The notes: generated by a model from the sequence alone, not told the origin. DNA of 64,000 nucleotides from an uncultured Acidimicrobiales bacterium (GCA_937930695.1 CALHCB010000031.1:2109-66108); one strand, 5' to 3'; shown: positions 14,392-53,304, numbered from the stretch's first letter. A program made the numbers and translations.

Positions 14392-14466
14392 GCCCCTGTG
14401 GCGCAGCCTGGTTAGCGCAGTGGACTTTTAATCCATTGGTCGTGGGTTCGAATCCCACCGGGGGCA
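14392..14466 (+). tRNA. tRNA-Lys (anticodon TTT)
   Basis: Hand-folded cloverleaf. Acceptor GCCCCTG/CGGGGGC, D-arm GCGC/GCGC, anticodon loop CTTTTAA, T-arm GTGGG-TTCGAAT-CCCAC, discriminator A. Confidence 0.9.
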
Positions 14467-14537
14467 CGTGGAATCATTGTCGGAACCGTCTGGCCGATAG
14501 CGAGACCAACAGTCACAACGCAGCGCGGGAGATCAAC

Positions 14538-24323: not shown

Positions 24324-24518
24324 CTGACGTTTCGGGAGTTTCTGAGGACGAGTGACGACATCGTCGAGCCCTTCCAACAGCGCTCCCGAAGACACCCGAG
24401 CTGGCACCTCCGACGCACTGCGGTGAAGAGGAGGTGCCAGACTCGCGTTGAGAAGTTGTTCTCACGTTGTTCATGGCCCGCGGGAATTGCAGTGACCCAC
24501 GATCGGTTTGGAGTCGTT

Positions 24519-25109
24519 ATGAGTGAAGAGTTTCCTTCAGCTGACGACGGCACGTCGGGCGCGACCGAAGAGCGCACCGCACGTTCCTGGATCACCCCGG
24601 TGGCGATTGGGTTCGTCGTACTGATCGGACTCGTCGCGGTCTTTGCTGGTGGTGATTCGACCAGTGCCGACCCATCGGGAGATCTCGCCACTCTCTCCGA
24701 ATTCCCTCTCGCCCTCCCTGACGGGTCAGAAACGACACTGGCTCGTCATGCTGGCGAACCTCTTGTCTTGAACTACTTCGCCGCGTGGTGCCCACCCTGT
24801 GCGGCCGAACTGCCAGACTTCGAGGCGGTCAGCCAGCAACGACTCGATGAGGTGACCTTTGTTGGCATCAGCCGCGACAACACCCTCGGCGCTTGGGAAG
24901 GCTTGATCGAACAGACCGGTGTGACCTTTGAGACTCTGTACGAGGGTGGTGTCCGCGGCTCGTTTGAAGAGGTCGGCGGGCTCGCCATGCCCACCACGGT
25001 GTTCATCACTGCAGACGGTGAGATCGCTCAAGTCTTCAGCGGCCCATTGAATGACGAGTTGCTCAATGACCTCATTGACGAGCATCTCACAACCGAAGGA
25101 ACGAACTAA
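24519..25109 (+). CDS. TlpA/ResA-family thiol-disulfide oxidoreductase (membrane-anchored thioredoxin)
   Basis: The ORF is trimmed to the ATG at 24519, which has a GGAG SD. It has a TM anchor (WITPVAIGFVVLIGLVAVF) and the active site WCPPC. Confidence 0.8.
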   Translation: MSEEFPSADDGTSGATEERTARSWITPVAIGFVVLIGLVAVFAGGDSTSADPSGDLATLSEFPLALPDGSETTLARHAGEPLVLNYFAAWCPPCAAELPDFEAVSQQRLDEVTFVGISRDNTLGAWEGLIEQTGVTFETLYEGGVRGSFEEVGGLAMPTTVFITADGEIAQVFSGPLNDELLNDLIDEHLTTEGTN

Positions 25110-29324: not shown

Positions 29325-30055
29325 GCACTTCCAGGAGCATCGATCGACTACGAGTGCTGACGAAGGCAGACCTTCGCGTGGCATTTCGGGACGGCGAGCA
29401 ACTTCTGCTCACGCTCGGACTACCCGTGCTCTTCCTCGTCTTCTTTTCGCTCGTCGATGTGCTTCCCACGGGAACAAACGAACCCGTCGACTATCTGGCC
29501 CCAGGAATCCTCGCCTTGGCCCTGATGTCCGCCGCCTTCGTCCGCCTCGCTATCGGCATCGGCTTCGACATCGGCTTTGGCGCCATACGTCGATTCGGGG
29601 TCACTCCGCTGCGTGTCGAGGAGTTCATCGGCGCCAAGCTCGCCACGACGGTCGTGTTGTTCATCTTCCAGCTCATCGTTCTGGTGACCACCGCACTGCT
29701 TCTCGGATGGAGTCCACGCGTCTCGGCGCTGGTCGTACCTGCCATGCTTCTCGGACTCGTTGCGTTCGTCGGCCTGGCGTTCGTTCTCACGGGTCTGGTC
29801 GACGGCCTTGGTGCCCTCGCAGCAGCCAACGCGCTCTACGTTGTGCTGCTGCTCCTGAGCGGCATCGTTTTTGAGCTCGACCGTCTTCCCGGCTGGCTCG
29901 TCATCGTTGTGAAACTGCTTCCCTCAACTGCTCTTGCCGAGCTTCTTCGATCCACGTTGGGCAGCTCGGCCGGACCGAGTTGGGCCTGGCTTTGTCTCGC
30001 TGGATGGGCGATTGGCACCCCGATCCTTGGCTCACGCCTGTTCCGCTGGAGTTAG
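29321..30055 (+). CDS. ABC-2 type transporter permease
   Basis: 244-aa ORF with about 6 TM helices. The start overlaps the ATPase stop. Confidence 0.75.
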   Translation: MSTSRSIDRLRVLTKADLRVAFRDGEQLLLTLGLPVLFLVFFSLVDVLPTGTNEPVDYLAPGILALALMSAAFVRLAIGIGFDIGFGAIRRFGVTPLRVEEFIGAKLATTVVLFIFQLIVLVTTALLLGWSPRVSALVVPAMLLGLVAFVGLAFVLTGLVDGLGALAAANALYVVLLLLSGIVFELDRLPGWLVIVVKLLPSTALAELLRSTLGSSAGPSWAWLCLAGWAIGTPILGSRLFRWS

Positions 30056-31119
30056 GACGTTGCGTCGACCGACCAGCGATGGGCCACGGTCACTGAATCC
30101 GCACCGAGCAGCACCTCGGTCTGGTCTGGGCTGACCGGGCAGGAGATCCGATGCTGTTCATGGGCCACGATCCGGACTCCCGGCGCGAGCTGGCTCAGCA
30201 ACTTGGGCACCATACGGGCAGTCACGTCCGCGGGCAGAAACAACAGGACAACCGTCGCGGAGTTGAGATCAGTGGTCTCGCCGTCCCCCTCAAGGATCGT
30301 CACCTGCGACGCAAGCATGGCGTCGGCGACGCGTTCTCTTGCGGTGGCCACAAGTTCAGGGTCACTGTCGATTCCGGTGCTCCGACAGCCGCGGCGTCGA
30401 GCGGCTTCGATCACGAGCCGGCCATCGCCGCATCCGATATCGATCACGTGGTCGGTTGGACCAATTTCTGCGAACTCGAACAGCGCGTCGAGCAACGAGG
30501 CCGGAGTGCTCAGGAACGGGCCCAGCTGCCCTTCTTCCACCCGGTTCCGTAGTCTGAGTCGCTCAGCAACAAGCCGAAGCGGACGGGTCACGAAGTAGAG
30601 CGGCCACAGAGCCGATGGCAGATCAACGGCACGCCAATCTGCATCGTTCGGCCGAAAGACCGCAGGAAGTTGTTGGAGCTTGGAAGCCGAGGTCCAACGA
30701 ATGTTCAAGACGGTGGTCACGTCGCCCGGTTTGGCCACGGTCAGCACCTGACTCATACGTCGAAACGATTCTCGAGCCGCCCCGGTCCACGGTTCCCACC
30801 TCCGATAGCCCGCCGTCTCCGCAGCGTCCCCGAAGCGACGGGCCTCGTCGAAGGATCCAACCACGGCTTCAAGCGCGTTGATCTGGTCTGCACCATTGGA
30901 CGCCGGACGCAGCTCAGCAGAAATTCGCGTCGTGTCCAGGAGCGACTGGAGTCGACCTTGTTCGTCGGTCACCGCCGCTGCGATATGTCGACACGCCTCG
31001 AGAGCCGCACGCGCCGTGCCATCGGTCGTGTCTGTCGCCAACGCACGGTTGGCCCACTCGACCAGAGTTCGGCTGTAGACCGCTTCCGCCAAGGCAGCGT
31101 CGTTTGGAGCGGTCGTCAT
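30052..31119 (-). CDS. class I SAM-dependent methyltransferase with ~190-aa N-terminal domain of unknown function
   Basis: 355-aa ORF with motif I VIDIGCGDG and post-I GIDSD. It starts 13 nt after the ctaG stop on the same strand. Confidence 0.7.
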   Translation of the reverse strand: MTTAPNDAALAEAVYSRTLVEWANRALATDTTDGTARAALEACRHIAAAVTDEQGRLQSLLDTTRISAELRPASNGADQINALEAVVGSFDEARRFGDAAETAGYRRWEPWTGAARESFRRMSQVLTVAKPGDVTTVLNIRWTSASKLQQLPAVFRPNDADWRAVDLPSALWPLYFVTRPLRLVAERLRLRNRVEEGQLGPFLSTPASLLDALFEFAEIGPTDHVIDIGCGDGRLVIEAARRRGCRSTGIDSDPELVATARERVADAMLASQVTILEGDGETTDLNSATVVLLFLPADVTARMVPKLLSQLAPGVRIVAHEQHRISCPVSPDQTEVLLGADSVTVAHRWSVDATS

Positions 31120-31132
31120 GGCTGACGTCAGC

Positions 31133-32056
31133 TCAGCTGGGCGGTTCGACGGGGGCCGACGTCGTGACGAACACGTCGTTGACCGCTTCGAACGTCAAGT
31201 CTGTTGTTGGCTTATGCCTGTCGAGGCGAGCCTGGCGGTCCTCTGCCTGTTCTACCGCAGCCCACCGACCGAAGATCACCACGATGATCCCCCAGATCAG
31301 GAAGCCTCCGCCGAGCTTCATGATCGCTCCGGCAGCCTGTTGGTCGGTCAGAACATCGACTCCCCACAGACGAGCTGGCGTGTCGTAGTGGCGGTAGACG
31401 ACGCCGGTAGCGAAGACCAACCAGCCCCCGGGCACCGTAGGCACGATCGACATCGCGAACAGATAGATGCATTGGCCGAGCGGAGAGAGCCGCCATTCCT
31501 TCACCGGTCCGATGATGGGCATCCACATGAGAAGGCCTGAGGCGAATACCAAGAGATGGAAACCGAAGTGAACGGCGCCAGAGTCTGCAGACCACTGGAC
31601 AACTCGAGACCAATGCAACCACATGGTGAGGGCATTGAAGATGAGGCCGGCCACAACCGGCTTCGACAGCTTGCGGATGGCCGAGGAGAGGCTCGAACCG
31701 GGCCGGACGAGCAGTTCAAAGACCCATCGAGGTGTGGCGAGAACAAACGCTGCAGGGATCAGGAGAGAGAGCGCGAGGTGCTGCACCATGTGGACTGAGT
31801 AGAGATGGTCCTCAGCGACATCGTGCACTGGCCAGTCTGACGCAATCCAGATACCAAGGATGCCGACCGCGAACCATCGCTTTTGCCCGGCAGTAATCGC
31901 AGGTAAGCCAGCCGCAATCGCCTTTGGCTGGAGAACTCGGCTGGCGTACCAACCAATGGCGAGCGCGCCGAGGACAAGAAACCAGACTTCCGGGTGGGCC
32001 GTCCATGGGACGGACGCCTCCGCCGATGCCTGGGCCGCGATTCCGCCTGCGGCCAT
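31133..32056 (-). CDS. ctaG: cytochrome c oxidase assembly factor CtaG (Bacillus caa3 type)
   Basis: The ORF is trimmed to the ATG at 32056, 5 nt after the subunit IV stop. It is a polytopic membrane protein with HMVQHLALSLLIP-type His motifs, as in the Caa3_CtaG family. Confidence 0.7.
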   Translation of the reverse strand: MAAGGIAAQASAEASVPWTAHPEVWFLVLGALAIGWYASRVLQPKAIAAGLPAITAGQKRWFAVGILGIWIASDWPVHDVAEDHLYSVHMVQHLALSLLIPAAFVLATPRWVFELLVRPGSSLSSAIRKLSKPVVAGLIFNALTMWLHWSRVVQWSADSGAVHFGFHLLVFASGLLMWMPIIGPVKEWRLSPLGQCIYLFAMSIVPTVPGGWLVFATGVVYRHYDTPARLWGVDVLTDQQAAGAIMKLGGGFLIWGIIVVIFGRWAAVEQAEDRQARLDRHKPTTDLTFEAVNDVFVTTSAPVEPPS

Positions 32057-32061
32057 TGGGG

Positions 32062-32415
32062 TCAGAAGACCTGGTCGAACGATGCGAAGACGATGAAGTA
32101 CACCAGCAGCGCCAAGATCGTCGCTGAACCGAATGCCCAGGTAAAGAGCCGACCATTGAGCATCTTCATGTCGAAATAGAGGTGCATGAAAATGCCGCAG
32201 ACCAACAGGAACTTGAAGACCATCATCACGATCAGCGGGACGACGAGGGCTGGGCCCTCCAAGCCGAGATAGGACCAAGCGACCTCCACCGCAGTGAGAA
32301 TCGCCAGGATCACAAAGACGATCCAGTACTGCTTCTCGGTTGGGTGCGCGCCGTGATCATCGTGGCCGTGATCGCCTGCGTGGCTATCGGTGTGATCGAT
32401 CGTTGTGTCAGTCAT
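32062..32415 (-). CDS. ctaF: cytochrome c oxidase subunit IV (prokaryotic COX4/CyoD-like)
   Basis: 117-aa protein with 3 TM helices directly after ctaE. It has a His/Asp-rich N-terminus. Confidence 0.7.
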   Translation of the reverse strand: MTDTTIDHTDSHAGDHGHDDHGAHPTEKQYWIVFVILAILTAVEVAWSYLGLEGPALVVPLIVMMVFKFLLVCGIFMHLYFDMKMLNGRLFTWAFGSATILALLVYFIVFASFDQVF

Positions 32416-32434: not shown

Positions 32435-33175
32435 TCAAGGAATCAGGTAGACGATCGTGAAGATGAGAACCCACACGACGTCGACGAAGTGCCAGTACAG
32501 ACCCACAAGCTCAACCGTTTCGGCTCGATCCGAATTGAGTTTGCCTCGCAAGGAGAGCAAGAGCAGGGACATCAACATGATGATGCCTCCCGTCACGTGC
32601 ACACCGTGAAAGCCAGTGAGGGTGTAGAAGGCAGAACCAAAGAGGCTTCCGTTGAAGGTCAGACCTTCGTTGTAGAACGCCGTGAACTCATAGACCTGAC
32701 CGGCGATGAAGGTTGAGCCGAGAATGGCCGTCGTGGCCAGCCAGATGCGCTGATTCTTGTAGTCGCCTTCTTCGGTGGCCTTGTGAGCCAGCACCATGCA
32801 GAGCGAGCTCATCAACAGGATGAACGAGCTCAACGAGGTGAAGGGAATGTCGAACAACGGCTCGACGGAGCCCTGCTCCTGCATCTCTTCGACCAAGACC
32901 GAGTTGTCGATGCCGGCGACCACAAACGGGTTGCCAGCGACGAGCTCTGTCAAGAACCGAGTCTTGAGAATCAGATAGGTCGAGATCAGGGCACCAAAGA
33001 GCAGACACTCCGAACCCAAGAAGAGCCACATCGCCAACTTCATGTTGGAGAGACCAAGGCTCGACGTATGTCCGCCGTGGTCATCGTGATCGTCGTGGGA
33101 CTCGGCATCAATCATGGTTTGACCGTCAGCGGCCTCTTCGAGATTGGGAATTTCCGGGTCTTGGAGGTCGGTCAT
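32435..33175 (-). CDS. ctaE: cytochrome c oxidase subunit III
   Basis: 246-aa ORF. The C-terminal FYTLTGFHGVHVTGG...YWHFVDVVWV is the COX3 signature. The start overlaps the ctaD stop. Confidence 0.9.
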   Translation of the reverse strand: MTDLQDPEIPNLEEAADGQTMIDAESHDDHDDHGGHTSSLGLSNMKLAMWLFLGSECLLFGALISTYLILKTRFLTELVAGNPFVVAGIDNSVLVEEMQEQGSVEPLFDIPFTSLSSFILLMSSLCMVLAHKATEEGDYKNQRIWLATTAILGSTFIAGQVYEFTAFYNEGLTFNGSLFGSAFYTLTGFHGVHVTGGIIMLMSLLLLSLRGKLNSDRAETVELVGLYWHFVDVVWVLIFTIVYLIP

Positions 33176-35136
33176 GCTCCCGCACCTACTGGTTCGTGAT
33201 CATCGTGACCGTGATCGTGTGGAATGTCGAGATCGTCTGCAGGCTCCAGGGCCCAGCCGTACATCGAAGCGACAAGAAGGAACGCACCGGGGATACAGAG
33301 CCAGAGCGAGAAGATGAGGCCGTAGCCAATGATGGGCAAGCTGCCAGCGAGAAGAATCGGCCAGTACGACGGTGCGGGAAGATGCACGCCTTCACCATTG
33401 CCCGGCTGGGCAATCTCTTCAGCTGCGGCGACTCGACGGAGACGGCCGTGCTCGTCTTCTGCGTACTTGCGGTGCCACCAGTCGTCGAGTGACGACACGT
33501 GGGGGTCAACATCAAAGTTGTGCTCAGGGGCCGGTGACTGGATGGACCACTCGATGGTGCGCCCATCCCATGGATCGGGACCGCAGTCGGGGCGGCCAGC
33601 AGCTTTCCAGGCTCGGTGAGACAGCAGCGCGTTCACCAAGACCAACAACGTGCCGACTGCCAGGATGAACGACCCGATGGTGGCAACGAAGTTCCAGAAG
33701 GTGAATCCCATTGCGTCGTCGTAGGTCTGCATACGGCGCGGCATGCCTTGAAGCCCGAGGACGTGCATAGGACCGAAGGTCAGGTTGAAACCAATGACCA
33801 TCAGCCAGAAGTTCCACAGACCCATCTTCTCGTTCATCTTGTAGCCAAATGCCTTTGGCCACCAGAAGTAGAAGCCGGCCATGAAGCCGAAGAGTGCACC
33901 ACCGAAGAGCACGTAATGGAAGTGAGCCACGATGTAGTAGGTGTCGGTCTGTTGGGTGTCGGAAGGGGCGATGGCGTGAGAGACGCCTGACAGGCCACCG
34001 ATGGTGAACTGTGTGACAAGCCCGAGTGAGAACAACATGGCGGTGTTCAGGGTGAGTTTTCCGCCCCATAACGTCGCGATCCAGTTCAAGATCTTCACAC
34101 CAGTTGGAACCGCAATGAACATGGTGGCCACCGAAAAGGCAGTGACCGACAGTGGGCCGAGTCCGGAGACGAACATGTGGTGCGCCCACACGCCCCAACC
34201 CATGAAGCCGATGGCGATGCCGGAGAAGACCATGAACGGATAGCCGAAGATTGGCTTGCGGGCGAAGGTCGGGATGACCTCGGAGACGATGCCGAACGCA
34301 GGGAGGATCATCAGGTACACCTCGGGGTGACCGAAGATCCAGAACAGATGCTGCCAAAGCAGCGGATCCGAGCCCTGCTGAACGTTGAAGAAGTTGCCCT
34401 CGAACACCCGGTCCATGAGCAACAGGATCTGAGCCACGGTGAGAACGGGAATGGCGAAGAGCAGAAGGAACTGGGTAACCAACGTCATCCACACGAAGAC
34501 CGGCATCTTCATGAGGCTCATGCCCGGAGCTCGCATGTTCAGGACGGTGGTGATCAGGTTGATGGCACCGGTAAGCGAGCCGATACCGGCGATCAGCAGA
34601 CCGACGTTCCAGAAGTCAATGCCCGTCGAAGGTGAGTAGACAATGCCGTTGTTCGGTGCGTAGTTGAACCAACCACCGTTGGCGCCACCTCCGAGGAACC
34701 AGCTCGTGTTGAGCATCACGCCACCGAAGAAGAACACCCAGAAGCTGAATGCGTTGATTCGGGGGAACGCAACGTCTCGAGCACCAACTTGCAGCGGCAT
34801 CAAGAAGTTGGCAAATGCTGCACCAATCGGCATCACAACCAAGAACACCATCACGGTGCCGTGCATGGTGAAGATGCGGTTGTATTGATCCGCAGACAGG
34901 AAACTTGAATTGGGTGTCGCGAGTTGCACCCGGATCGCCAGCGCAGCGGCGCCGCCGATCAGAAGGAAGAACATGGCGGCGGCGCCGTACATGATCCCGA
35001 TCTTCTTGTGGTCGACTGTGGTCAGCCAGTCTTTGAGACCGGTGGCTTCGCGGGGTCGCGAAAATGCGCCGAGCGGATTGTTCGCAAGACCTTCATTACC
35101 TGAAGGAAGTGCGAGCGGTTCCTCGATGATCGCCAT
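33172..35136 (-). CDS. ctaD: cytochrome c oxidase subunit I
   Basis: 654-aa ORF with all canonical ligand motifs: FTMHGTVMVF, WIFGHPEVY, WAHHMF and VAHFHYV. Confidence 0.95.
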   Translation of the reverse strand: MAIIEEPLALPSGNEGLANNPLGAFSRPREATGLKDWLTTVDHKKIGIMYGAAAMFFLLIGGAAALAIRVQLATPNSSFLSADQYNRIFTMHGTVMVFLVVMPIGAAFANFLMPLQVGARDVAFPRINAFSFWVFFFGGVMLNTSWFLGGGANGGWFNYAPNNGIVYSPSTGIDFWNVGLLIAGIGSLTGAINLITTVLNMRAPGMSLMKMPVFVWMTLVTQFLLLFAIPVLTVAQILLLMDRVFEGNFFNVQQGSDPLLWQHLFWIFGHPEVYLMILPAFGIVSEVIPTFARKPIFGYPFMVFSGIAIGFMGWGVWAHHMFVSGLGPLSVTAFSVATMFIAVPTGVKILNWIATLWGGKLTLNTAMLFSLGLVTQFTIGGLSGVSHAIAPSDTQQTDTYYIVAHFHYVLFGGALFGFMAGFYFWWPKAFGYKMNEKMGLWNFWLMVIGFNLTFGPMHVLGLQGMPRRMQTYDDAMGFTFWNFVATIGSFILAVGTLLVLVNALLSHRAWKAAGRPDCGPDPWDGRTIEWSIQSPAPEHNFDVDPHVSSLDDWWHRKYAEDEHGRLRRVAAAEEIAQPGNGEGVHLPAPSYWPILLAGSLPIIGYGLIFSLWLCIPGAFLLVASMYGWALEPADDLDIPHDHGHDDHEPVGAGA

Positions 35137-35154: not shown

Positions 35155-36633
35155 TCAATCGAGAGTCGCCAAATAGGCGACAAGATGGTCGAGATCTTCT
35201 TCGGACAGTGCCGGGAACGCCGGCATTCCACGCAGGTCTTCAGGCGCCATGGCCTTCTGATCTGGGGCATTCGCAATCCATCGCTTCAGGATTGCGGCAT
35301 TCAATCGGTAGTCACCGTCGGGATTGCCGTCGTCGACCGAGAGCTCGAAGTACTCGCCGACATCGATGTTGTCGTCGTCGGCATCAATGCCTGCGTACTG
35401 GCTGTAGATGGCTCCGGCAAAGACCGTACGAGTCGCAAAGTGCGTGAGGTTCGGTGCGGCACCAGCGGTGAGCGCTGATTCGAAATCCTTGACCGTGCCT
35501 GGCTCCAGGTCCGGCAGCTCTTCACCCTCGACGACAGGTGGGCCGTAGGAGAGATTGCCGTCGTTCACGACGTGGCACGACATGCAATTCGCCTGGAAGA
35601 GCTGATAGCCAGCCCAGACCTCTTCGTCAGATTCGGAGGGCACCTCGGCGAGACCGAGCTGGTTGTCGAGCCAGGCATCGAACTCTTCACCGGACAGCGC
35701 AACCGAACTCATTCGCATGCGAGCGTGAGAAAGACCGCAGTACTCGGTGCACCAGCCGGTGTATTCACCGGGCTCATCGGCTTCGAGGGACCAGGTATGG
35801 ATTCGGCCCGGCACGGTGTCTCGCTTGCCGTTGAGCCGCGGAATCCAGAAGGAATGGATGACGTCGCGGGACGTCAATTCGAGGTCGATCTGTTCACCAG
35901 CAGGGATCACGAGCTGATTCGCGATCACCAGATCGTCATCGTCGAGCGCAATGTTGAGGGGCCACTCAGCATCATCAAGATCGCCGCCGGCACCGTTCGG
36001 TCCGTAGATCTCACCGTCGCCATCGACGTCTTCGAAGAAGCCGTCGCAGTCGATGTCATAGCGGTATTCCCACCACCACTGCTGGCCAATGACCATCACG
36101 TCGAGCTCGCCCGAGCGAGCGCCATCGGCATTCGCACGACACTCGCCAGCTGCTGGGTCGCTGTTGGTTTCTTCGAGCTCCCAGATTCCCACAACTGTCG
36201 GGATGGAGATCGCGGCGAGGAGAACCGCCGGAGCAATCGTCCAGCCGATCTCGAGCTTGAAGTTGCCGTGGACCTGCTCGGGAAGATCGTCCTCGTCGTA
36301 GTCCTCGGGCTTCACACGATTCTTCATCGCGAGCCCGATCGTTCCGAAGACGACCAAGACGAAAACGATCGCCATGATGACCCAGATGGGCTGCATCAAC
36401 TTGTCGATGGCCTCGGCCCGGGGACCACGAGGCTCGAACGTATTGAGCGGTTTGTCCTCGGCACAGGCCGAAACGAGAAGTGCGAGCGCTCCAACAAGAG
36501 CGGTCTTCTTCAATGACATGAGTGCGGGGATGCGGGGCATGACCTTCCCAAGAGTTGTGCTCATGGAGACGGAGTGCAAAGTCGAGCGGGTCTGGTCGAT
36601 TGTCACGTTCGTGTCGTTCACGTTCGTGCTCAT
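35155..36633 (-). CDS. ctaC: cytochrome c oxidase subunit II with fused C-terminal cytochrome c domain (caa3 type)
   Basis: CuA motif HSFWIP...CTEYCGLSHARM and heme-c motif CMSCH. The start was chosen at the ATG at 36633, which overlaps the upstream stop (TGATG) and has a GGAGG SD. The ATG at 36540 is an alternative. The Arg-rich part of the ORF further upstream was rejected. Confidence 0.9.
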   Translation of the reverse strand: MSTNVNDTNVTIDQTRSTLHSVSMSTTLGKVMPRIPALMSLKKTALVGALALLVSACAEDKPLNTFEPRGPRAEAIDKLMQPIWVIMAIVFVLVVFGTIGLAMKNRVKPEDYDEDDLPEQVHGNFKLEIGWTIAPAVLLAAISIPTVVGIWELEETNSDPAAGECRANADGARSGELDVMVIGQQWWWEYRYDIDCDGFFEDVDGDGEIYGPNGAGGDLDDAEWPLNIALDDDDLVIANQLVIPAGEQIDLELTSRDVIHSFWIPRLNGKRDTVPGRIHTWSLEADEPGEYTGWCTEYCGLSHARMRMSSVALSGEEFDAWLDNQLGLAEVPSESDEEVWAGYQLFQANCMSCHVVNDGNLSYGPPVVEGEELPDLEPGTVKDFESALTAGAAPNLTHFATRTVFAGAIYSQYAGIDADDDNIDVGEYFELSVDDGNPDGDYRLNAAILKRWIANAPDQKAMAPEDLRGMPAFPALSEEDLDHLVAYLATLD

Positions 36634-37418
36634 CAACCCTCCCCGTCCTCGGAGTGTTCCTCGGAATGATCTTCTTCGTGATGTTCGAAGCTGCGCTGCC
36701 CGACGGCGGCGCCAACGATGCCACTGACGAGGACCACAACGGCCCCTGCGGCAACGATTCCGTTCATGACGTTGCGCGTCACGTCCATCTTCGAAAGGGC
36801 GACAGCGCCAAAGAAGACGATGATCGCAACGACGGCGCCAGCGACGACGGCGCCGTTGGCGGAAGTCGCAAGGAAGACACGGGAGAAGCCGACGGCGATC
36901 ACGGCGATGACGAGACACGCCATCATCGGTATTTCGACGGGACCCAGAACCCGGCGTCGAATCACCTCGTTGACTTCAGGATCTCCAGTGGCTCGATCCG
37001 ACCAGGCCAGCACGACCCAGTTCAGACCCGCAGCAGCGAGCACGGCAAGCCCGAGAATGAAGAAGGCCTGACTTACGGCGAGCCCGATGATGACCGAGGC
37101 GATGCCAAAGGCAGTCACCGGTGCCCAGAGGCTGGGACCAGAAGGCGGCGTCAGATTCGGAACGTGGCTGGCACCGATTCGATGGGCCATTGCGTCGGCA
37201 TCACCATCACGAGTGATGATTGTGGTGACACCAAGAGCGAACGCGGACAGGGCCGCTCCAATGAGAATCGTGTAGCCGAGGTGATCGCCAACACCACCCT
37301 TGTAGCCAGCACTGACGACGCCGATCGGCTCGCCACCGGTGACCAGCCCATAGACAATCGCGCCGAAGAGCGCGACTCCCGCCAAGCCGAAGAAATATCG
37401 AGAACCCCAAGTAAGCAT
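36633..37418 (-). CDS. hypothetical polytopic membrane protein with His/Glu-rich C-terminal tail
   Basis: 261-aa ORF with about 6 predicted TM helices and the tail FEHHEEDHSEEHSEDGEG. It is wedged between the subunit III-like gene and ctaC with overlapping or short junctions. Confidence 0.6.
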   Translation of the reverse strand: MLTWGSRYFFGLAGVALFGAIVYGLVTGGEPIGVVSAGYKGGVGDHLGYTILIGAALSAFALGVTTIITRDGDADAMAHRIGASHVPNLTPPSGPSLWAPVTAFGIASVIIGLAVSQAFFILGLAVLAAAGLNWVVLAWSDRATGDPEVNEVIRRRVLGPVEIPMMACLVIAVIAVGFSRVFLATSANGAVVAGAVVAIIVFFGAVALSKMDVTRNVMNGIVAAGAVVVLVSGIVGAAVGQRSFEHHEEDHSEEHSEDGEG

Positions 37419-37427
37419 CGTCAGTCC

Positions 37428-38045
37428 CTACTTTGTGATGTAGATGGCGTACCAAACAGCGAGGTACAGCACGACGGCGACGGTCCAGAACGTTGCGACT
37501 CCATAGAGTCCCTCAACGTCCTTCGAGTTGTATTCCCCACCAAGGGTTCGCAGACCCATGGCGACGGTGTACAGCATGGCCGCACCCATCACCGCCAGGT
37601 GCGTTCCGATAAGGGCATACAGCAACGGAGGCCGTTCGAGGACATCGCCCCGGATCGGCATCTCGAGAATGGTGAGCAGGTAGGCCGTCTGGGCCATGTA
37701 GGCAAAGCCGAACATGAGGCTCAAGCCCAACGCGATGTAGGTGTTGGCGCGGTCATCAGCCTTGATCGAAGCGACCGCCCACACCATGGCCACCACCGAC
37801 ATGCACAGCGTCATCGCCATCATGTTCGGTTGGGTCAACGGAATGTTCACTCCGTCGGGAAGCCACCGCTCGCCCTGCGCGATAACGCCGGCTCGGGTTT
37901 CCAGATAGATGCCGAGCAGGCCGGCCATCCCCATGGTGACGGCTGCCGATGCGAGCATCGTGCCGATGAGAAGAAGGCGAGGTCGGGCGGGTTCTGCCGC
38001 AACAACGCGCTCGGGAATTACGTCGTACACCGTGACGTCTGTCAT
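37428..38045 (-). CDS. heme-copper oxidase subunit III-like membrane protein
   Basis: 205-aa ORF with about 5 TM helices. The C-terminal YGVATFWTVAVVLYLAVWYAIY echoes the COX3 YWHFVDVVW region. The start overlaps the upstream stop by 1 nt. Confidence 0.65.
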   Translation of the reverse strand: MTDVTVYDVIPERVVAAEPARPRLLLIGTMLASAAVTMGMAGLLGIYLETRAGVIAQGERWLPDGVNIPLTQPNMMAMTLCMSVVAMVWAVASIKADDRANTYIALGLSLMFGFAYMAQTAYLLTILEMPIRGDVLERPPLLYALIGTHLAVMGAAMLYTVAMGLRTLGGEYNSKDVEGLYGVATFWTVAVVLYLAVWYAIYITK

Positions 38046-39769
38046 CAGGCGTCTCCTCCGCTCGATGCGTCAACCGGTTCGCCAGCCTCGATGACCTCAG
38101 CTGAATCCTCAGCAGCGGTTTCAGGAGCCAGGTTGAAATCGTCGTCCAGTAGCGGTGTGGACGAGGAGACCACCGGAGCGGTCGAGAAGTTGCCGAGCGG
38201 CGGCGGGCTGACTGTCGCCCACTCAAGAGTTGTGCCCTTCCAAGGTTCAACTGCGGAGCCTCGTCCCGCACTTGCACCAAGGATCTGGAGAAGAAGAAGC
38301 GCTGCGCCACCGGCCAAGAGAACCGCGCCGATACCGGCAACAAGGTTCAGGGCTTCCACGCCAGAGTCGGGATCTTCGGCAATGAGAGGAAGAGCGGGCT
38401 GGGAGAGGAAGCCACTGACCAGCAAGGGAACACCCCAGACGACAGCGCCGCCGGCAGCAGCGAGCGATGCGAGGAGGCCAAGACGATCCTCGACGACTCG
38501 ACCCCAGATCTTGTGACCCCAATGATTGACTCCGGCGATGATGCCGAGAAGCGCTGCGCCGAGCGTCATGGCTCGAATTCCCTCGTGGAACGCCGACCCA
38601 TTCAGGCTCCAGGCGGAGTCCAGATTGATGTCAGCGTCAAAGTTTGTGTTCAGGAAGCCAACAATTGGTTCGACGTTGGGAAGGATTGAGGCGAGGGCGG
38701 CGAGCAGCAACACGACGCCTCCGAGCAGACCAGCAATCAGAGGCGTACGAACCTTGAAAGCACCGGTCTTCATGCTCTCGCCTGCCAGGCCGAGCACCGA
38801 GAGAATGGGAATGGCGCTCAGAAGAATGAGAACAACGAGGGCGCCGTTGTCGAAGGCAACAGGTCGTCCTCGCCCGCCGAAGCTGAAGAAGTCGCCTGCG
38901 AATGAGTAGATCGCCAGGATGCCCAGGGCGCCCATGACGGAGCGATGAAATCGCACGACCTTGCCGGTGTGCACGCTGATTGCATCGACGGCAATTCCCA
39001 GGGTCGGAATACCAACCCAGAAGATGGCTGGAGCGAGGCTCACGCTGTAGAGCACCGAGACCAGACCGGAACGGCTGGTGTCGGTCGGCAAGTAGCCGTA
39101 CTTCACATCGAGGTACGCCAAGAGGAGCTCGGCCATCACGAGCGGAAGGGCCAGTATTCCCGTGATGCTGAAGACCAGGAACGCCCAGGTGCTTACCGGG
39201 GAACGCTCGAGGGTCATGCCGGGTGCTCGGGCTCCGAGAATCGTCGACGCCACACAAATGAGGGCCCAAACGATTGCGCCGATCATGGCGCCAAGCGCCA
39301 AGGTCCACAGGACTACATAGTCGGTACGGCCGCCGCTGGGGCCGCCGTTCATGATGTAGGCGAGGACCAGAATTCCGGTCGAGACGAGCCAGGTCCAGAA
39401 TGCGGTGGCCGCACCACGACTGAAGGCGAGGGCGGATGCCCCAATCTGCAAGGGAGTGATGTAGATGGCGAGCCCGACGAAGAGCGGGACGATGCCGCCG
39501 AACATCATGAGGTCACGGCCAAGGGACCACAGCTGGGTGAACTGATCGGTGTCTTCAACGATGTCGAGGCTGGCGAGATCGGCGTGCTCAAAGCCAGCAA
39601 TGGCGCTCGCAACGATGCCGGCGAGCAGGAAGAGGGCTCCGCTGAACATCCACATTCGGCCTACAGCCTTGTGGTCACCGGTTCCGAAAATGTCGGTAAC
39701 AGCAGCAGTGGACTCGGCGCCGTCAGCGGCAGGCGCGTCGGCCTCGGGGCGGGTGTCAGTCATTGCCAT
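38045..39769 (-). CDS. heme-copper oxidase subunit I-like protein lacking most canonical metal ligands
   Basis: 574-aa ORF that appears collinear with CtaD by eye (DHKAVGRMWM, PLQIGASALAFSR, ARAPGMTLE, EPWKGTTLEWATVSPPP). GHPEVY is replaced by LAPAIF, and the WAHHMF region has no His. The TM2 His is absent and HFHY is replaced by AFHE. Confidence 0.8.
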   Translation of the reverse strand: MAMTDTRPEADAPAADGAESTAAVTDIFGTGDHKAVGRMWMFSGALFLLAGIVASAIAGFEHADLASLDIVEDTDQFTQLWSLGRDLMMFGGIVPLFVGLAIYITPLQIGASALAFSRGAATAFWTWLVSTGILVLAYIMNGGPSGGRTDYVVLWTLALGAMIGAIVWALICVASTILGARAPGMTLERSPVSTWAFLVFSITGILALPLVMAELLLAYLDVKYGYLPTDTSRSGLVSVLYSVSLAPAIFWVGIPTLGIAVDAISVHTGKVVRFHRSVMGALGILAIYSFAGDFFSFGGRGRPVAFDNGALVVLILLSAIPILSVLGLAGESMKTGAFKVRTPLIAGLLGGVVLLLAALASILPNVEPIVGFLNTNFDADINLDSAWSLNGSAFHEGIRAMTLGAALLGIIAGVNHWGHKIWGRVVEDRLGLLASLAAAGGAVVWGVPLLVSGFLSQPALPLIAEDPDSGVEALNLVAGIGAVLLAGGAALLLLQILGASAGRGSAVEPWKGTTLEWATVSPPPLGNFSTAPVVSSSTPLLDDDFNLAPETAAEDSAEVIEAGEPVDASSGGDA

Positions 39770-39997
39770 GGACGAAGGGACCTCAGCGCGGAGAAGGGGA
39801 AAACACGGTCGAAGAGAGCAACTTCGGGCTCAGCGACCCGGCGTTGCGCCGACGGAATTAGCAAACGAACCCAAGAGTGCGCGGCTAGGCCCGGACGACC
39901 GGTCGGTACTGTAACCGACCACGCAGTCAGATTCGAACTCCCAGGACGGGAGATCTCGACAGATACGCAAGTGACACCGACAGGATCGGGCGACACC

Positions 39998-40924
39998 TCA
40001 GCCAACGCCCCACCCAACGAGCTGGTCGATCGCCACCGCTGCGAACAGCACGGTGAGATGGGTGATCGAGAATCCGAAGTAGCGAATTGCTTTGGTGTCG
40101 AGTCGCGATGTGTCCGTTTCTCGGATCAAATCAAGGGCACCCAATGAGAACAAGGCACCAACAACAACCGCACTGCCGAGATAGATCCAGCCCATATCGG
40201 CAACCGGCCACAACGCAAGACTGACTGCCCACACGATGAGGGAATAGACAAAGATTTGGATCGCGGTCGATCGATGCCCAGCAACGACCGGCATCATCGG
40301 AACGCTGGCTGCCGCGTAGTCAGATTCATAGCGAATCGCCAGGGCCCAGAAGTGCGGCGGGGTCCAGAAAAACACCACAAGAAAGAGCAGTACGGCGGGC
40401 CAGGCCACCGTATTTGTCACTGCAGACCAACCAATGAGAACCGGTGCAGCGCCCGCAGCGCCACCGATCACAATGTTCTGTGTCGACGTCCGCTTCAACC
40501 AGATCGTGTAAACAAAGACGTAAAAGCAGCAGGCGGCCACCGCGAGCACCGCTGAGAGAAGGTTGACGAAGGCCCAGAGCCAGAAGAACGAGACAGTTTC
40601 GAGCCCGATCGCGAACGTGAGGCCCTGCTGTGGTGTGAGCTCACCAGTAACCAAGGGGCGTTTGTTGGTTCGCTCCATCAAGGCGTCGATATCTCGATCG
40701 ACGTACATGTTGATGGCGTTGGCACCGCCGGCAGACATTGTTCCGCCGATGACAGTGGCAACAACGAGCCAAAGATCGGGAAGTCCGCGCTGAGCCAACA
40801 CCATTGTTGGAACGGTGCTCACGAGCAACAGCTCGATGATTCGCGGTTTGGTAAGCGCAATATAAGCCCAGGCCCGCGACCGGGTGTTCACAGCGGTCAG
40901 CACCACGGCGTTGAGGGTACCCAC
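39998..40924 (-). CDS. ctaB: protoheme IX farnesyltransferase (heme O synthase)
   Basis: 308-aa UbiA-family ORF containing YIALTKPRIIELL and GANAINMYVDRDIDALMERTNKRP. Confidence 0.9.
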   Translation of the reverse strand: MGTLNAVVLTAVNTRSRAWAYIALTKPRIIELLLVSTVPTMVLAQRGLPDLWLVVATVIGGTMSAGGANAINMYVDRDIDALMERTNKRPLVTGELTPQQGLTFAIGLETVSFFWLWAFVNLLSAVLAVAACCFYVFVYTIWLKRTSTQNIVIGGAAGAAPVLIGWSAVTNTVAWPAVLLFLVVFFWTPPHFWALAIRYESDYAAASVPMMPVVAGHRSTAIQIFVYSLIVWAVSLALWPVADMGWIYLGSAVVVGALFSLGALDLIRETDTSRLDTKAIRYFGFSITHLTVLFAAVAIDQLVGWGVG

Positions 40925-41045: not shown

Positions 41046-41963
41046 GTGGATTCTCGACGACACGAACAGCTGTCGCGTGCAGTGGTGGTAGCCGGGATCT
41101 TGCTCGCGGTCATCATGTTCACCGGTGCCGCAGTGCGGCTCACCGAGTCCGGCCTTGGATGCCAAGACTGGCCGACCTGCGAAGACAATCAACTCGTCCC
41201 CGAGTGGGGATACCACGGGGCCATCGAGTTCGGAAATCGGCTGATTTCCTTCGTCGTCTCCATCGCCGTCGGTGTTGTTGTCGTACGGGCCCGCCGAATC
41301 CCCGAGCACCCCGAGTTCCTTCGCTGGGCGCTGAGTTTGGTGGCAATCGTCCTGGTGCAGATCGTGCTCGGTGGCATCACGGTGCTCGTTGATCTCCACC
41401 CGATGTTCGTCGGCGTTCACTTCCTGCTGTCCATTTTGTCGATCTGGCAGGCCGCAATGTTGTGGCATCGAATCATGATTTCGGGGCATCATGGTCGCAC
41501 GCTCCCACCTGCACCCCTACGAACTCGCGGGTTGCTCATTGTCGGGCTTGCCGTTGTTGTCCTCGTCTTGGGAACGCTCGTGACGGGCACAGGCCCTCAT
41601 GGCGGCGACTCCGAGGCAGAGCGGCTCAGTCTCGACCTCGAGTCCATTGTGCGACTGCACAGCATCAGCGTGTGGATCATGCTCGCCGCAACTGTTGAAT
41701 TCGCCGCCCGGCTGCGCCGTGGCGGTCATGCCCTCGGCTCGGTGCAGCGCACGTTGGCCCTGATCCTGGTGCAAGGCGGGATCGGCTACGTGCAATATGC
41801 ACGAGGAGTTCCTCCGCTTTTGGTCGAACTCCACGTCATCGGGTCCGTTGCTGTCTGGTTCGCCGTGGTGCGCCAATACCTCTCCCTCACCGAAACCTTG
41901 CCAGACTGGTTCCGCTATGAGTCGTCAACTACCTCCACATCAGTGGCCGCTCCGGGCTCGTAG
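41046..41963 (+). CDS. ctaA: heme A synthase (COX15/CtaA)
   Basis: 305-aa polytopic ORF with the Cys pair [10 protein letters not shown] and conserved His-containing helices ([27 protein letters not shown]). Divergent from ctaB. Confidence 0.85.
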
Positions 41964-42993: not shown

Positions 42994-43066
42994 GCCCCCA
43001 TCGTTCAGTGGCCTAGGACACCTGCCTTTCACGCAGGCAACACGGGTTCGAATCCCGTTGGGGGTG
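42994..43066 (+). tRNA. tRNA-Glu (anticodon TTC)
   Basis: Hand-folded. Acceptor GCCCCCA/TGGGGGT (G1-U72, as in other actinobacterial tRNA-Glu), anticodon loop CTTTCAC, T-arm ACGGG-TTCGAAT-CCCGT. Confidence 0.9.
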
Positions 43067-43127
43067 CTCCAACTATCGCTATGATCGTTGGGCCCGGTGA
43101 GGACGTGTCTTCGCCGAGTTAATTACT

Positions 43128-43202
43128 GGTCCCGTAGTGCAGTCTGGAGTGCACGCCGCCCTGTCAAGGCGGAGGTCGCGAGTTCAAATCTCGTCGGGAC
43201 CG
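43128..43202 (+). tRNA. tRNA-Asp (anticodon GTC)
   Basis: Hand-folded. Acceptor GGTCCCG/CGGGACC, anticodon loop CTGTCAA, T-arm GCGAG-TTCAAAT-CTCGT. Confidence 0.9.
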
Positions 43203-43290
43203 CTAGAACCTCGGAGTTTCTTGAGAAGGGCTCTTGCTCCTTTCAGGAAGTCGCTCGTTGGTTCGTGGGGATCTACGAAGATCCCCGAGG

Positions 43291-43363
43291 GGTCGGGTAG
43301 CTCAGTTGGCAGAGCATTCGCCTGAAAAGCGAAGGGTCACCGGATCGACGCCGGTCCCGACCA
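43291..43363 (+). tRNA. tRNA-Phe (anticodon GAA)
   Basis: Hand-folded. Acceptor GGTCGGG/CCCGACC, D-arm GCTC/GAGC, anticodon loop CTGAAAA, T-arm ACCGG-ATCGACG-CCGGT. The T-loop begins with an atypical A at position 54. Confidence 0.85.
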
Positions 43364-43371
43364 CACGTAAC

Positions 43372-47071: not shown

Positions 47072-50922
<3,851 letters not shown>

Positions 50923-50985: not shown

Positions 50986-51417
50986 TTAGCGACGGCGGCG
51001 GTAGACGGTTACTTCTTGGCTCACTGGGACGAGGTCACGGCGATGTTCTCGCCGGGTCTCTTCCTGAGCTTCTCGATGTTCACGCTCGATCTGTTCGAGC
51101 TGTTGTGCGTGCAGTCGGCGCGACTTGGCGAGCTCCTCGGTCACACGAGCAAGCGAGTGCTCGAGTGCCAACACTCGCTTGACTCCTGCAAGGTTGAGGC
51201 CCTCCTCGGTGAGGGACTGAATTCGCTGAAGAAGCGAGACGTCGGCATCGCTGTACCGACGGCTTCCCCCTCCAGTTCGAGCCGGACTCACCAATCCTTT
51301 GCGCTCGTAGATCCGCAACGTCTGGGGGTGCACGCCCGCGAGCTCAGCGGCGATGGAAATGACGTAGACGGCCCGACTGGACGGCTGTGCGCCGCTCCCT
51401 CCATCGGGCCGGCTCAT
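50986..51417 (-). CDS. hspR: heat-shock transcriptional repressor HspR (MerR family)
   Basis: 143-aa ORF with the MerR HTH YVISIAAELAGVHPQTLRIYERKGLVSPARTGGGSRRY. It is the last gene of dnaK-grpE-dnaJ-hspR. Confidence 0.85.
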   Translation of the reverse strand: MSRPDGGSGAQPSSRAVYVISIAAELAGVHPQTLRIYERKGLVSPARTGGGSRRYSDADVSLLQRIQSLTEEGLNLAGVKRVLALEHSLARVTEELAKSRRLHAQQLEQIEREHREAQEETRREHRRDLVPVSQEVTVYRRRR

Positions 51418-52580
51418 GATGTCGAACCTGGCTGCGCGACATCGTCGGTTTCAGCGACCGTCGATTCGAACGTGGCGGCCATCGCTTCGATCGCCGCTCG
51501 CTGATCATCAGAAAGGGTCGTCGGCACGTCAACTTCGACGGACACCAACAAGTCTCCCGTTGCCTTCTTGGCCGGAACGCCCTTGCCCTTTACCCGGAAG
51601 GTCTTGCCGCTGGCCGTTCCCGCTGGAACCTTCAGGGTGAGCGAACCACCATCGATCGTCGGGACCTTCACTCTGGTGCCAAGCGCCGCCTCGGCGAACG
51701 AGATGGGGAGCGTCACGGTGAGGTTCGAGCCCTTCCGTCCAAAGACCTCGTGCGCCGCAACTTTGACGGTGACAAAAAGATCACCCGGCCGGCCGCCGAA
51801 GGTGCCTGGACCTCCCCTGCCCTTCAACCGAATGCGCTGCCCTTCTTTCACACCCGCAGGAATCCGGACCTTCACTTGGCGCGGTCGACGCTCGGTGCCG
51901 GTTCCCCGACAGGTCGTGCACGGATCATCGACAACGCGACCCCTGCCTCCACATTGAGGGCAAGGCTGAGAGAGGCTGAAAAGACCCTGATTGTCGTCGA
52001 GAACACCTCGACCACCGCATCGAGAGCAGGATGACGGAGTCGTGCCAGGGCGTGAACCACTGCCGCTACACGTCGAACATGAAGCATCCGACGTCAGGTG
52101 CACCGATGTCGTGACGCCGGCAATTGATTCATCAAACGACAGATGAAGGTCCGCGTTGAGATCTTCACCTGGCTGGGCTCGGGGACCCTGGGGAGCCCGT
52201 TGTCGAGGGCCAGGTCCGCCGCCGCCAAAGACCCCACCGAGCAGATCACCAATGTCGACCCCGTCGAAGGAGAAGTTGCGGCCACCACCCATACCCGTGT
52301 CGGGCCCAAAGCCGCCCGGACGGGCACCGCCGAAGCCGCCACCAACGGGACCGAGGCGTCGAACGTCGTCGTATTCCTTGCGTTTGTCATCGTCGCCAAT
52401 GACGTCGTAGGCCTCGGAGATCTCCTTGAAACGCTCTTCGGCTTTGCTATCCCCAGCATTGGCATCCGGGTGGTATTTCCTTGCGAGCTTTCGGTACGAC
52501 TTCGTGATCTCCTTGTCGGTTGCGTCTTTCTTGACGTCCAACATCTTGTAGAAGTCCTTGTCGAGCCAGTCGTGTTGCAT
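51414..52580 (-). CDS. dnaJ: molecular chaperone DnaJ
   Basis: 388-aa ORF with a J-domain (HPD in KYHPDAN), a G/F-rich linker and four CxxCxG zinc-finger repeats. Confidence 0.95.
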   Translation of the reverse strand: MQHDWLDKDFYKMLDVKKDATDKEITKSYRKLARKYHPDANAGDSKAEERFKEISEAYDVIGDDDKRKEYDDVRRLGPVGGGFGGARPGGFGPDTGMGGGRNFSFDGVDIGDLLGGVFGGGGPGPRQRAPQGPRAQPGEDLNADLHLSFDESIAGVTTSVHLTSDASCSTCSGSGSRPGTTPSSCSRCGGRGVLDDNQGLFSLSQPCPQCGGRGRVVDDPCTTCRGTGTERRPRQVKVRIPAGVKEGQRIRLKGRGGPGTFGGRPGDLFVTVKVAAHEVFGRKGSNLTVTLPISFAEAALGTRVKVPTIDGGSLTLKVPAGTASGKTFRVKGKGVPAKKATGDLLVSVEVDVPTTLSDDQRAAIEAMAATFESTVAETDDVAQPGSTS

Positions 52581-52671: not shown

Positions 52672-53304
52672 TCAACCAAGGGTGCGGACCATGGCGGGCC
52701 GTACGACGTTGCCCTTCCAGCCGTACCCGACCCGAAGAACTTCAGCGACTACGGGGCCATCAGGACTTGCACCGTCTTCGTGCATGACGGCTTCGTGCAG
52801 CGCAGGATCGAATGGAGCATCGACCGGATCCAGCCGCTCGAGACCCTGCTTGATCAAGGCATCCAGGAGCGAGGTGCGAATGGGGTCGACATCTGCCGCC
52901 CCGTTCGCAATCGCTCCATCACATGCGTCGAGCACAGGCAGGAGCTCATTGACGAGGCCAGTGTTGGCACGGGCAATGGCATCGGCCTCGCGTTTGGCAA
53001 CGGCCTTGCGGTAGTTCTCGAACTCGGCTTGCAATCGCCGGAGCGAATCGAGATATTCGTCGCGCTCGACGCTGACTCTTTCGAGGTCAACCACGAGGTC
53101 TTCCACTGAAATCGGGCCAGTTGGCTGGTCCTCAGCTACCTCGGCCTGTTCGTGCAACGCGGCGTCGACAGCGTCGCCAATCGAGGAATCGCCCTCGGTG
53201 CCGGCTCCTGCCCCAAAGGACGAAACGTCATCGGCGGGAACACCCTCGGCGGGCGAGTCCGGGGCGGAATCCTCCGCCCCAGAGTCTTTCGGTGACGTGC
53301 TCAC
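52672..53304 (-). CDS. grpE: nucleotide exchange factor GrpE
   Basis: 210-aa ORF with [15 protein letters not shown] and the C-terminal FDPALHEAV motifs. The start overlaps the dnaK stop. Confidence 0.9.

Follow-up and report, generated by a model that had tools for sequence, protein, structure and literature searches.

Few membrane enzymes have been studied as thoroughly as the haem-copper oxidases, whose subunit I is defined by six His ligands. Elsewhere, cofactor-poor paralogous partners are found, as in cytochrome bd (CydB or CydA'), alternative complex III (ActF) and mitochondrial bc1 (inactive 'core' proteins that resemble peptidases); in each, a duplicated catalytic subunit without cofactors is kept as a structural partner. 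To our knowledge, no inactive partner of that kind exists for haem-copper oxidases. In the rus operon, acoP lies just upstream of coxB. AcoP of Acidithiobacillus ferrooxidans is a membrane-anchored cupredoxin that binds the aa3 oxidase tightly and is needed for optimal activity (PMC4059628). Genome and metagenome mining has also yielded divergent superfamily members (eNOR, bNOR, sNOR, gNOR and nNOR), which have a binuclear haem-metal site and no active-site Tyr, with one active-site His replaced by Asp in gNOR, and for which nitric oxide reduction was proposed or shown (PMC11214002). Here we analyse a stretch of 64,000 nucleotides (the window) from an uncultured marine Acidimicrobiales bacterium (GCA_937930695.1, CALHCB010000031.1:2109-66108), in which three genes that we call psI, psIII and X immediately precede the structural genes of a caa3 oxidase. 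The module and the first oxidase genes are, in window coordinates:

psI, 39769..38045, minus strand: 574 aa, paralogue of haem-copper oxidase subunit I with 12 transmembrane (TM) helices
psIII, 38045..37428, minus strand: 205 aa, paralogue of oxidase subunit III, of the five-TM type
X, 37418..36633, minus strand: 261 aa, seven predicted TM helices, N-terminus inside and C-terminus outside
ctaC, 36636..35155, minus strand: caa3-type subunit II, with COX2_TM, a CuA cupredoxin and a fused cytochrome c (CMSCH)
ctaD, 35136..33172, minus strand: genuine subunit I, complete in its ligands and channel residues, with a C-terminal subunit-IV-like extension (PF12270)
ctaE, 33175..32435, minus strand: genuine subunit III

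The open reading frames (ORFs), coordinates and junctions of psI, psIII, X and ctaC given in a preliminary description of this DNA, made from the sequence alone, were borne out. The window's genuine oxidase is complete: CtaC carries the CuA motif and the fused cytochrome c (CMSCH), and CtaD retains the six His, the GHPEVY pair, D132, N139, E286, K362 and the PRR pair.

psI is homologous to CtaD over its full length. It matches Pfam COX1 (PF00115) with E 3e-33 and aligns with the window's CtaD by BLASTP (24% identity, E 9e-32) from the DHK motif to the C-terminal EW..SPP..NF; the collinearity claimed in the preliminary description thus holds, and every motif pair quoted there was reproduced. 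On TIGR02891 (CtaD) it scores 144.4 bits and does not reach the NCBIfam equivalog cut-off of 670.75. An AlphaFold model built on a 49-sequence alignment has twelve long helices, with a mean predicted local distance difference test score (pLDDT) of 91 and a predicted TM-score (pTM) of 0.90. Its best Foldseek matches in the PDB (TM-score 0.72-0.77) are CtaD of the mycobacterial and corynebacterial bcc-aa3 supercomplexes, E. coli CyoB and Thermus thermophilus caa3, the value for CtaD being about 0.77. Profile and model together confirm the oxidase fold. In addition to full-length homology and the 12-TM and five-TM folds, the module shares the actinobacterial 'PLQxGA' motif with the actinobacterial A-family proteins CtaD and CtaE.

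In the close clade of psI, about 90 positions are conserved at 90% or more, and about half of these are identical in CtaD. The common positions cluster in cytoplasmic-face motifs and at helix-kink prolines (P209, P247 and P255). Conserved motifs comprise the N-terminal DHKxxG, PLQxG..AF.R, R..GM....P...W, W..K..G and W.G.T.EW...SP....NF, and the cytoplasmic-face elements DHKxxG, R..GM, W..K..G and EW..SP..NF are common to psI and CtaD. This pattern is expected of a preserved scaffold, not of a catalytic core.

Ligand losses were scored in an alignment of 121 sequences and in a second one of 81 psI and 67 CtaD proteins. psI retains none of the six canonical His ligands. The low-spin haem His residues of TM2 and TM10 are replaced by Gly84 and Ala400, and across 69 close relatives these positions hold Gly or Ser and Ala or Gly, respectively. 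GHPEVY has become LAPAIF, with Ala246 at the CuB His position; the Tyr of the His-Tyr pair is present in 59 of the 69 relatives and its His partner in none. The high-spin haem a3 His position is occupied by Ile398. The CuB His-His pair falls on non-ligand residues, G-D in the BLASTP alignment and F-S in the MAFFT alignment, within a segment that is His-free in the window. The losses of the TM2 His, of GHPEVY and of the CuB His pair, all reported in the preliminary description, hold in both alignments. Its further statement that at most one of the six His survives was right as to the loss, and the candidate survivor, the His of AFHE (H395), was rejected on alignment register: in a stretch anchored by (D/G)T and WxxK without indels, H395 pairs with an Ile, and the position of the haem a3 His follows only three residues later, so that zero survive.

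The proton pathways are missing as well. D132, N139 and E286 of the D-channel are each replaced by Ala, K362 of the K-channel by Val, and the haem-propionate PRR Arg pair is absent; across the psI family, the canonical D- and K-channel residues have become Ala, Ser, Gly, Val or Thr. None of the 83 close psI relatives has any of the ligands or channel residues, and no family member examined keeps the high-spin haem His or the CuB His ligands. The psI family therefore differs from the divergent nitric oxide reductase families in lacking a binuclear site in every examined member, and the window clade lacks the low-spin haem site too. Judged from these replacements, the known mechanism of O2 reduction and proton pumping is closed to psI. 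We conclude that psI is a genuine oxidase-like protein which, unlike CtaD, has no haem or CuB ligands, His-Tyr pair, D- or K-channel or propionate Arg pair, and which is encoded beside an intact caa3 oxidase.

The positions of the lost ligands are not uniformly apolar. Clade-specific conserved charges occur next to the lost TM2 His (R85 and D/E86) and next to the lost CuB pair (D/E293), and H395, D/E396 and R399 are conserved around the lost TM10 His. Such buried charges at former haem and CuB ligand places, conserved in the close clade, could serve an autonomous membrane function such as ion translocation or sensing, and a related module can indeed stand without adjacent ctaC and ctaD (described below). 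We nevertheless regard this explanation as quite improbable. The canonical proton-channel residues have all been replaced by small apolar residues or Ser/Thr, which also disfavours the proton- or ion-conducting accessory suggested in the preliminary description; the charges are not conserved in a distant clade of the same synteny; and the module lies strictly next to ctaC in about 90 loci, which speaks for a connection with the oxidase. The charged residues may simply form a salt-bridge network that fills the empty cofactor cavities.

psIII was called subunit-III-like from the sequence alone, and this is upheld by the family more than by the window protein itself. The latter scores 18.4 bits against Pfam COX3 (PF00510), below the gathering cut-off (GA) of 23.8, and matches the window's CtaE with a BLASTP E of 1e-5. 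The psIII family profile aligns with CtaE at 97.6% probability (hhalign, E 2.7e-12), and PF00510 is found in many psIII orthologues. By these comparisons psIII is a subunit III homologue, clear at the family level.

X proved to be the least recognisable of the three. Searches of Pfam, NCBIfam and the PDB with the window protein gave no match, Foldseek gave no meaningful one, and a member-by-member Pfam search of its 56-member alignment gave sub-threshold noise only. Its AlphaFold model alone reaches a pTM of 0.58, which suggests helices that need partners. A likeness emerged from profile comparison: residues 70-138, the TM3-4 hairpin, align with the subunit-IV-like extension of CtaD (hhalign 91.6%, E 8e-7), and five other membrane families from the operon, used as controls, score 3% or less against X. 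The hairpin contains PSLWAP in the window and PSYWgP in the family consensus, matching the PSYWP motif of the CtaD extension. Several X relatives come near or above the PF12270 threshold (GA 26.9): P0419 scores 31.1 bits, the X of L091 21.2, P0406 18.4 and P0459 18.2.

The relatives of X also disclose what the window protein lacks. An exhaustive profile search gave 963 clusters, and among the best 150 of these, 51 have at least 311 aa, with extra C-terminal sequence. All ten long relatives that were scanned have a C-terminal extension; seven match Cupredoxin_1 (PF13473), four of them above the Pfam cut-off, and two of the seven also match the plastocyanin/azurin family (PF00127). In some long relatives the N-terminal 120 residues match Cyt_c_ox_IV (PF12270). 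The type-1 copper motif C-x2-H-x2-4-M is kept in 6 of the 51 long representatives (e.g. VQHNLH...FICDVHPTNMQG) and likewise in the X-like protein of a separate metagenomic locus, L092. By the positive-inside rule, X has seven TM helices with the N-terminus in and the C-terminus out, which fits an outward-facing cupredoxin. The window X ends 21 residues past TM7, without the cupredoxin domain and its His, Cys, His and Met ligands, and its tail, rich in His and acidic residues (FEHHEEDHSEEHSEDGEG), is the counterpart of the linker (GEREFEHHGDEHHEEEE...) found just before the cupredoxin in long relatives. At least two His occur in the last 30 residues of 71 of 78 orthologues, where the median number of acidic residues is 9.5. 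On the strength of the hairpin match, the cupredoxin of the long relatives and the correspondence of tail and linker, we assign the window X as a putative subunit-IV-like anchor, the stump of a lost cupredoxin domain. The preliminary description was correct in calling it a polytopic membrane protein and missed this identity. Compared with CtaF and PF12270 proteins, X has three more TM helices and in its ancestral form would have carried a C-terminal cupredoxin.

As a separate observation, the PF12270 N-terminus and an intact type-1 copper cupredoxin occur together in P0419, encoded on a 3.4-kb contig (JGI sample 3300041965) without preceding COX1- or COX3-like genes. X-type proteins may thus exist outside the three-gene module.

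The module and the oxidase genes form one tightly packed row, completed by the following genes:

ctaB, 40924..39998, minus strand: haem O synthase, a conserved neighbour
ctaF, 32415..32062, minus strand: COX4_pro-type subunit IV
ctaG, 32056..31133, minus strand: Caa3_CtaG assembly factor, with the ATG at 32056 inferred from the sequence and from the lengths of relatives
methyltransferase, 31119..30052, minus strand: S-adenosylmethionine (SAM)-dependent
ctaA, 41046..41963, plus strand: haem A synthase (COX15-CtaA), divergent from the row, a conserved neighbour

The psI stop and the psIII start overlap by 1 nt, psIII and X are spaced by 9 nt, the stop of X overlaps the ATG of ctaC (TGATG), and the ATG of ctaG sits 5 nt past the ctaF stop. 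From psI through the methyltransferase, all genes are on one strand with intergenic gaps of at most 19 nt, in agreement with the earlier reading of nine co-directional genes from 39769 to 30052. The same reading had the module heading the operon, which is not the case: ctaB lies 228 nt upstream of psI on the same minus strand, and upstream of psI in essentially all relatives. A terminator scan found only weak hairpins in this 228-nt gap. A promoter scan of the locus gave no sigma-70-like sites, as expected in a high-GC actinobacterium, and an Rfam scan of the window returned four tRNAs only, with no RNA element near the module. Long antisense ORFs of fairly high third-position GC run across psI, psIII and X (36555-38516, plus strand, 653 aa; 38945-40147, plus strand, 400 aa); they are typical for high-GC genomes and no evidence of genes.

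This arrangement is widespread in the class. A search with the psI protein gave about 80 close homologues (42-71% identity) and a second tier at 29-36%, and a scan of one genome per species found relatives encoded in at least 184 genomes. The taxonomy of relatives rests on the labels of metagenome-assembled genomes (MAGs), and those of the best 80 of these 184 genomes are all Acidimicrobiia, Acidimicrobiales or unclassified Actinomycetota; one of the MAGs (L083) is labelled Rhabdothermincola sp. Cluster names, searched for a cultured host, gave MAG or metagenome labels only. A survey of synteny and distribution, suggested in the preliminary description, gave the order ctaB-psI-psIII-X-ctaC-ctaD-ctaE-ctaF-ctaG in every locus with enough DNA (about 90 loci, six further contigs included), with ctaA-ClpS-DUF2017 on the opposite strand. 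Identity to the window across loci is 59-94% for CtaD, 30-70% for psI, 29-86% for psIII and 31-76% for X.

All three genes are constrained. The ratio of nonsynonymous to synonymous substitution rates (dN/dS; Nei-Gojobori, 28 locus pairs) is 0.07-0.27 for psI, 0.03-0.22 for psIII and 0.06-0.25 for X, compared with 0.04-0.25 for ctaC, 0.03-0.22 for ctaE and 0.02-0.10 for ctaD; psI evolves about twice as fast as CtaD. The module ORFs are intact, without disrupted frames, in about 90 loci, and the locus pairs show no relaxed selection. Because synteny is conserved and dN/dS is low, we conclude that the module is under purifying selection and functional in some sense, not a decaying remnant. The loss of all catalytic residues and the roughly twofold rate of psI are what a functionless remnant of a second oxidase operon might show, but this explanation is hardly credible: it is contradicted by the selection analysis, in which the dN/dS of the three genes (0.03-0.27) equals that of the genuine subunits II and III, as well as by ORFs that stay intact and keep their length across at least 184 species, by dozens of invariant positions and by a predicted fold of high confidence.

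More distant relatives of the module are less degenerate. Second-tier psI proteins commonly have Gln in place of the CuB and haem a3 His (W.F.QP.VY, GAWAQ, TAQ.HY), and a subset has both low-spin haem His. Three loci share the synteny of the window and keep more ligands, and a fourth keeps some of them. The loci for which we delimited the module are:

L087, 3173-6581: less degenerate relative, same synteny
L089, 2-3212: less degenerate relative, same synteny
L090, 447-3924: less degenerate relative, same synteny
L092, 2983-7956: stand-alone module on a 9.4-kb JGI metagenome contig, with ctaB, a CtaG-like gene (opposite strand), P0114, a COX3-like gene and a 327-aa X-like protein

psI of L087, L088 and L089 has TLHGE (the TM2 His), AQ(M/V)H (the second TM10 His) and GAxDIAFPR (D132), and that of L087 also the ARR Arg pair; X in these three loci carries a cupredoxin with an intact type-1 motif (H...C-x2-H-x3-M). 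In L090, psI has the haem His and D132, and the cupredoxin of X is degenerate, with the Cys lost. P0114, the psI relative of L092, is the most CtaD-like of the relatives in its ligand motifs, with both low-spin haem His and no CuB His, and in the cupredoxin domain of the neighbouring X-like protein the type-1 copper motif is intact (FQCDIHPGQMKG). Genes for Fur and ZnuA lie downstream of this module, and ctaC and ctaD are absent from the 9.4-kb contig. The L092 module may be an autonomous haem and blue-copper complex.

Read by their motifs, these relatives form a graded series from a bis-His haem site with a blue-copper X, through a haem site only, to neither, and the window stands at the fully cofactor-free end. 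On the simplest reading, the ancestral module held a single haem and a single blue copper; its binuclear centre would have been lost early, followed by the copper site, the cupredoxin and finally the haem site, depending on the lineage. We infer this direction of degeneration by taking ligand retention as ancestral, because metal sites are far more easily lost than regained. The preliminary description had seen a catalytically dead module beside an active caa3 oxidase; this stands for the window, but the relatives with a bis-His haem and type-1 copper in the same gene order had escaped it, and in their light the module reads as the last stage in the decay of a redox accessory, not as a 'dead' duplicate that arose de novo. 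The less degenerate relatives, with a bis-His haem, no binuclear centre and a tethered blue copper, could represent a new type of electron-transfer complex.

Given such relatives, which keep the bis-His site, the Arg pair and the type-1 copper motif, the window proteins might themselves still be redox-active, binding haem, copper or quinone in a non-canonical way and passing electrons to CtaC. Four His of psI (H33, H267, H395 and H416) are indeed conserved in the window clade. However, H33, H267 and H416 lie at cytoplasmic helix ends and H395 is off-register, so that none occupies a canonical ligand position or has a facing partner; the window clade has lost both low-spin haem His and the Arg pair, and the window X has no cupredoxin domain at all. 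We consider residual redox activity very unlikely.

Which function could maintain three cofactor-free paralogues? psI (I-like), psIII (III-like) and X (IV-like) would together constitute a 'shadow' copy of the oxidase membrane core without its cofactors. Their ancestor would have been an accessory with one low-spin haem (bis-His psI) and a membrane-tethered type-1 copper (X), its genes placed between those for haem A synthesis and ctaC. In the window lineage, all redox ligands would have been lost, with the three proteins still under purifying selection and packed tightly against ctaC. As subunits I, III and IV do, psI, psIII and X would assemble into a stable membrane subcomplex, which would dock on the active CtaCDEF and stay there as a partner without redox function, a pseudo-protomer lending stability or order to the complex; X would then expose its tail, rich in His and acidic residues, on the outer face near the CuA and cytochrome c domain of CtaC. 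That the module is such an I/III/IV-like subcomplex, a permanent structural partner of the caa3 oxidase, is the reading we tentatively favour, at close to an even chance though slightly below it.

Several lines of evidence point to a structural partner: the strictly kept position of the module next to ctaC, with stop and start codons that overlap, the subunit-like selective constraint, the preservation of scaffold rather than catalytic features, the precedent of AcoP and the cofactor-poor paralogous partners of other complexes. The overlapping or near-abutting codons (psI/psIII and X/ctaC) would fit co-expression in proportion to the structural subunits. In a run that may be RNA (X5), psI, ctaD and their neighbours are alike covered by scattered fragments, 2-4x deep; the other runs bearing the locus are DNA-type or untyped metagenomes. 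From the lines of evidence listed above we infer that the proteins form a complex, bind to the oxidase and serve a structural role.

Three observations weigh against a structural partnership. Residual rate covariation among nine genes is 0.41 for psIII-X and 0.44 for ctaC-ctaD, and only psIII-X reaches the level of a true pair; that of psI with CtaC, CtaD and CtaE is weak (about 0.15). The less degenerate module of L092 has no adjacent ctaC or ctaD, so the ancestral module may work alone. The assembly factors ctaB and ctaG are in the same row, where operon position cannot separate a subunit from an assembly role.

The last point leads to another explanation, in which psI, psIII and X act as an assembly platform or chaperone that transiently holds new CtaC or CtaD while haem A and copper are inserted, or offers copper on the outer, His-rich tail of X at that stage, and is absent from the mature enzyme. 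The location of the module between ctaA/ctaB, for haem A synthesis, and the structural genes, with ctaG further along the row, agrees with this, as does the His- and acid-rich tail of X (at least two His in those 71 orthologues), predicted to lie on the outer side, that of CuA loading; in L092, too, the stand-alone version has ctaB and a CtaG-like gene as its neighbours. Yet about 24 TM helices in three proteins would be large for a chaperone, the codon overlap with ctaC suggests subunit-like stoichiometry, and the His-rich segment of X is a linker remnant that is present in cupredoxin-bearing relatives too. Moreover, no subunit I or III paralogue is found among the known bacterial oxidase assembly factors (reviewed in PMC9145763). 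An assembly role thus appears unlikely, and a lasting structural partnership with the oxidase remains the reading we prefer.

Among described systems, AcoP offers one comparison. Cupredoxin-bearing X relatives share its domain type, and their X genes lie directly upstream of ctaC. AcoP differs in having one TM helix and no adjacent subunit I and III paralogues, and the window X has no cupredoxin; the X relatives and AcoP are likened by domain type, not by sequence. For CydB/CydA', ActF and the bc1 core proteins, the partnership is known from solved structures, whereas that of the module is our proposal. We found no description of the module in the searchable literature, a search that left most subscription journals outside, which accords with the earlier remark that no function had been described for it. 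As far as found, it would be an undescribed accessory lineage of a well-known superfamily, cofactor-free here and with predicted haem and blue copper in relatives.

No prior description was found of subunit I, III and putative subunit IV paralogues without any cofactor site, selected class-wide and fixed beside an active oxidase. If the structural pseudo-protomer is real, it would be the first such case in the haem-copper oxidase superfamily, and a natural example of a redox module turned stepwise into a scaffold with its intermediates still living. A bolder extension, which we hold to be rather doubtful, is that the caa3 oxidase of Acidimicrobiia is an obligate asymmetric assembly of active CtaCDEF and a cofactor-free I/III/IV-like pseudo-protomer, the fossil of an unrecognised low-spin-haem and tethered type-1-copper branch of the superfamily, whose survivors may form a new electron-entry or relay complex. 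There is also a practical consequence. Databases name psI 'cbb3-type cytochrome c oxidase subunit I' and the others 'cytochrome c oxidase subunit 3' or 'hypothetical protein'. Because module genes are named as oxidase subunits, oxidase-gene counts in metabolic reconstructions of abundant marine and soil Acidimicrobiia may be too high; in one comparative table that counts coxA by KEGG alone (PMC11697166), psI is indistinguishable.

Some further features of the window were noted. The C-terminal ~115 residues of CtaD (33172-33520) form a fused two-helix extension matching PF12270 (residues 574-631), which is kept in relatives; together with the separate COX4_pro-type ctaF, it gives the active oxidase subunit-IV elements of two kinds. 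The methyltransferase at the end of the row (30052-31119, minus strand), 13 nt past ctaG, has 355 aa with a C-terminal SAM-dependent methyltransferase domain; its closest NCBIfam likeness is an archaeal protein-lysine N-methyltransferase, far under the cut-off, and it is found at this place only in the three closest relatives (L007-L009). A 228-aa Redoxin/AhpC-TSA/thioredoxin-like protein (24423-25109, plus strand) is followed by a 307-aa protein without a Pfam match, and the two could be a ResA/CcdA-like pair for cytochrome c maturation, to judge by domain likeness.

The ORF at 53121-55067 (plus strand) matches Pfam NAD-GH (PF10712; E 4e-121), a family that we take to be an artefact of antisense-strand translation of dnaK. 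The minus strand probably holds the true gene, dnaK, which would be located upstream of dnaJ (51414-52580), of a MerR/HspR-like regulator (50986-51417) and of clpB (48409-50922). A tRNA cluster (Glu-TTC, Asp-GTC and Phe-GAA; 42994-43364, plus strand) lies about 1 kb past ctaA, and a tRNA-Lys is located at 14392-14467.

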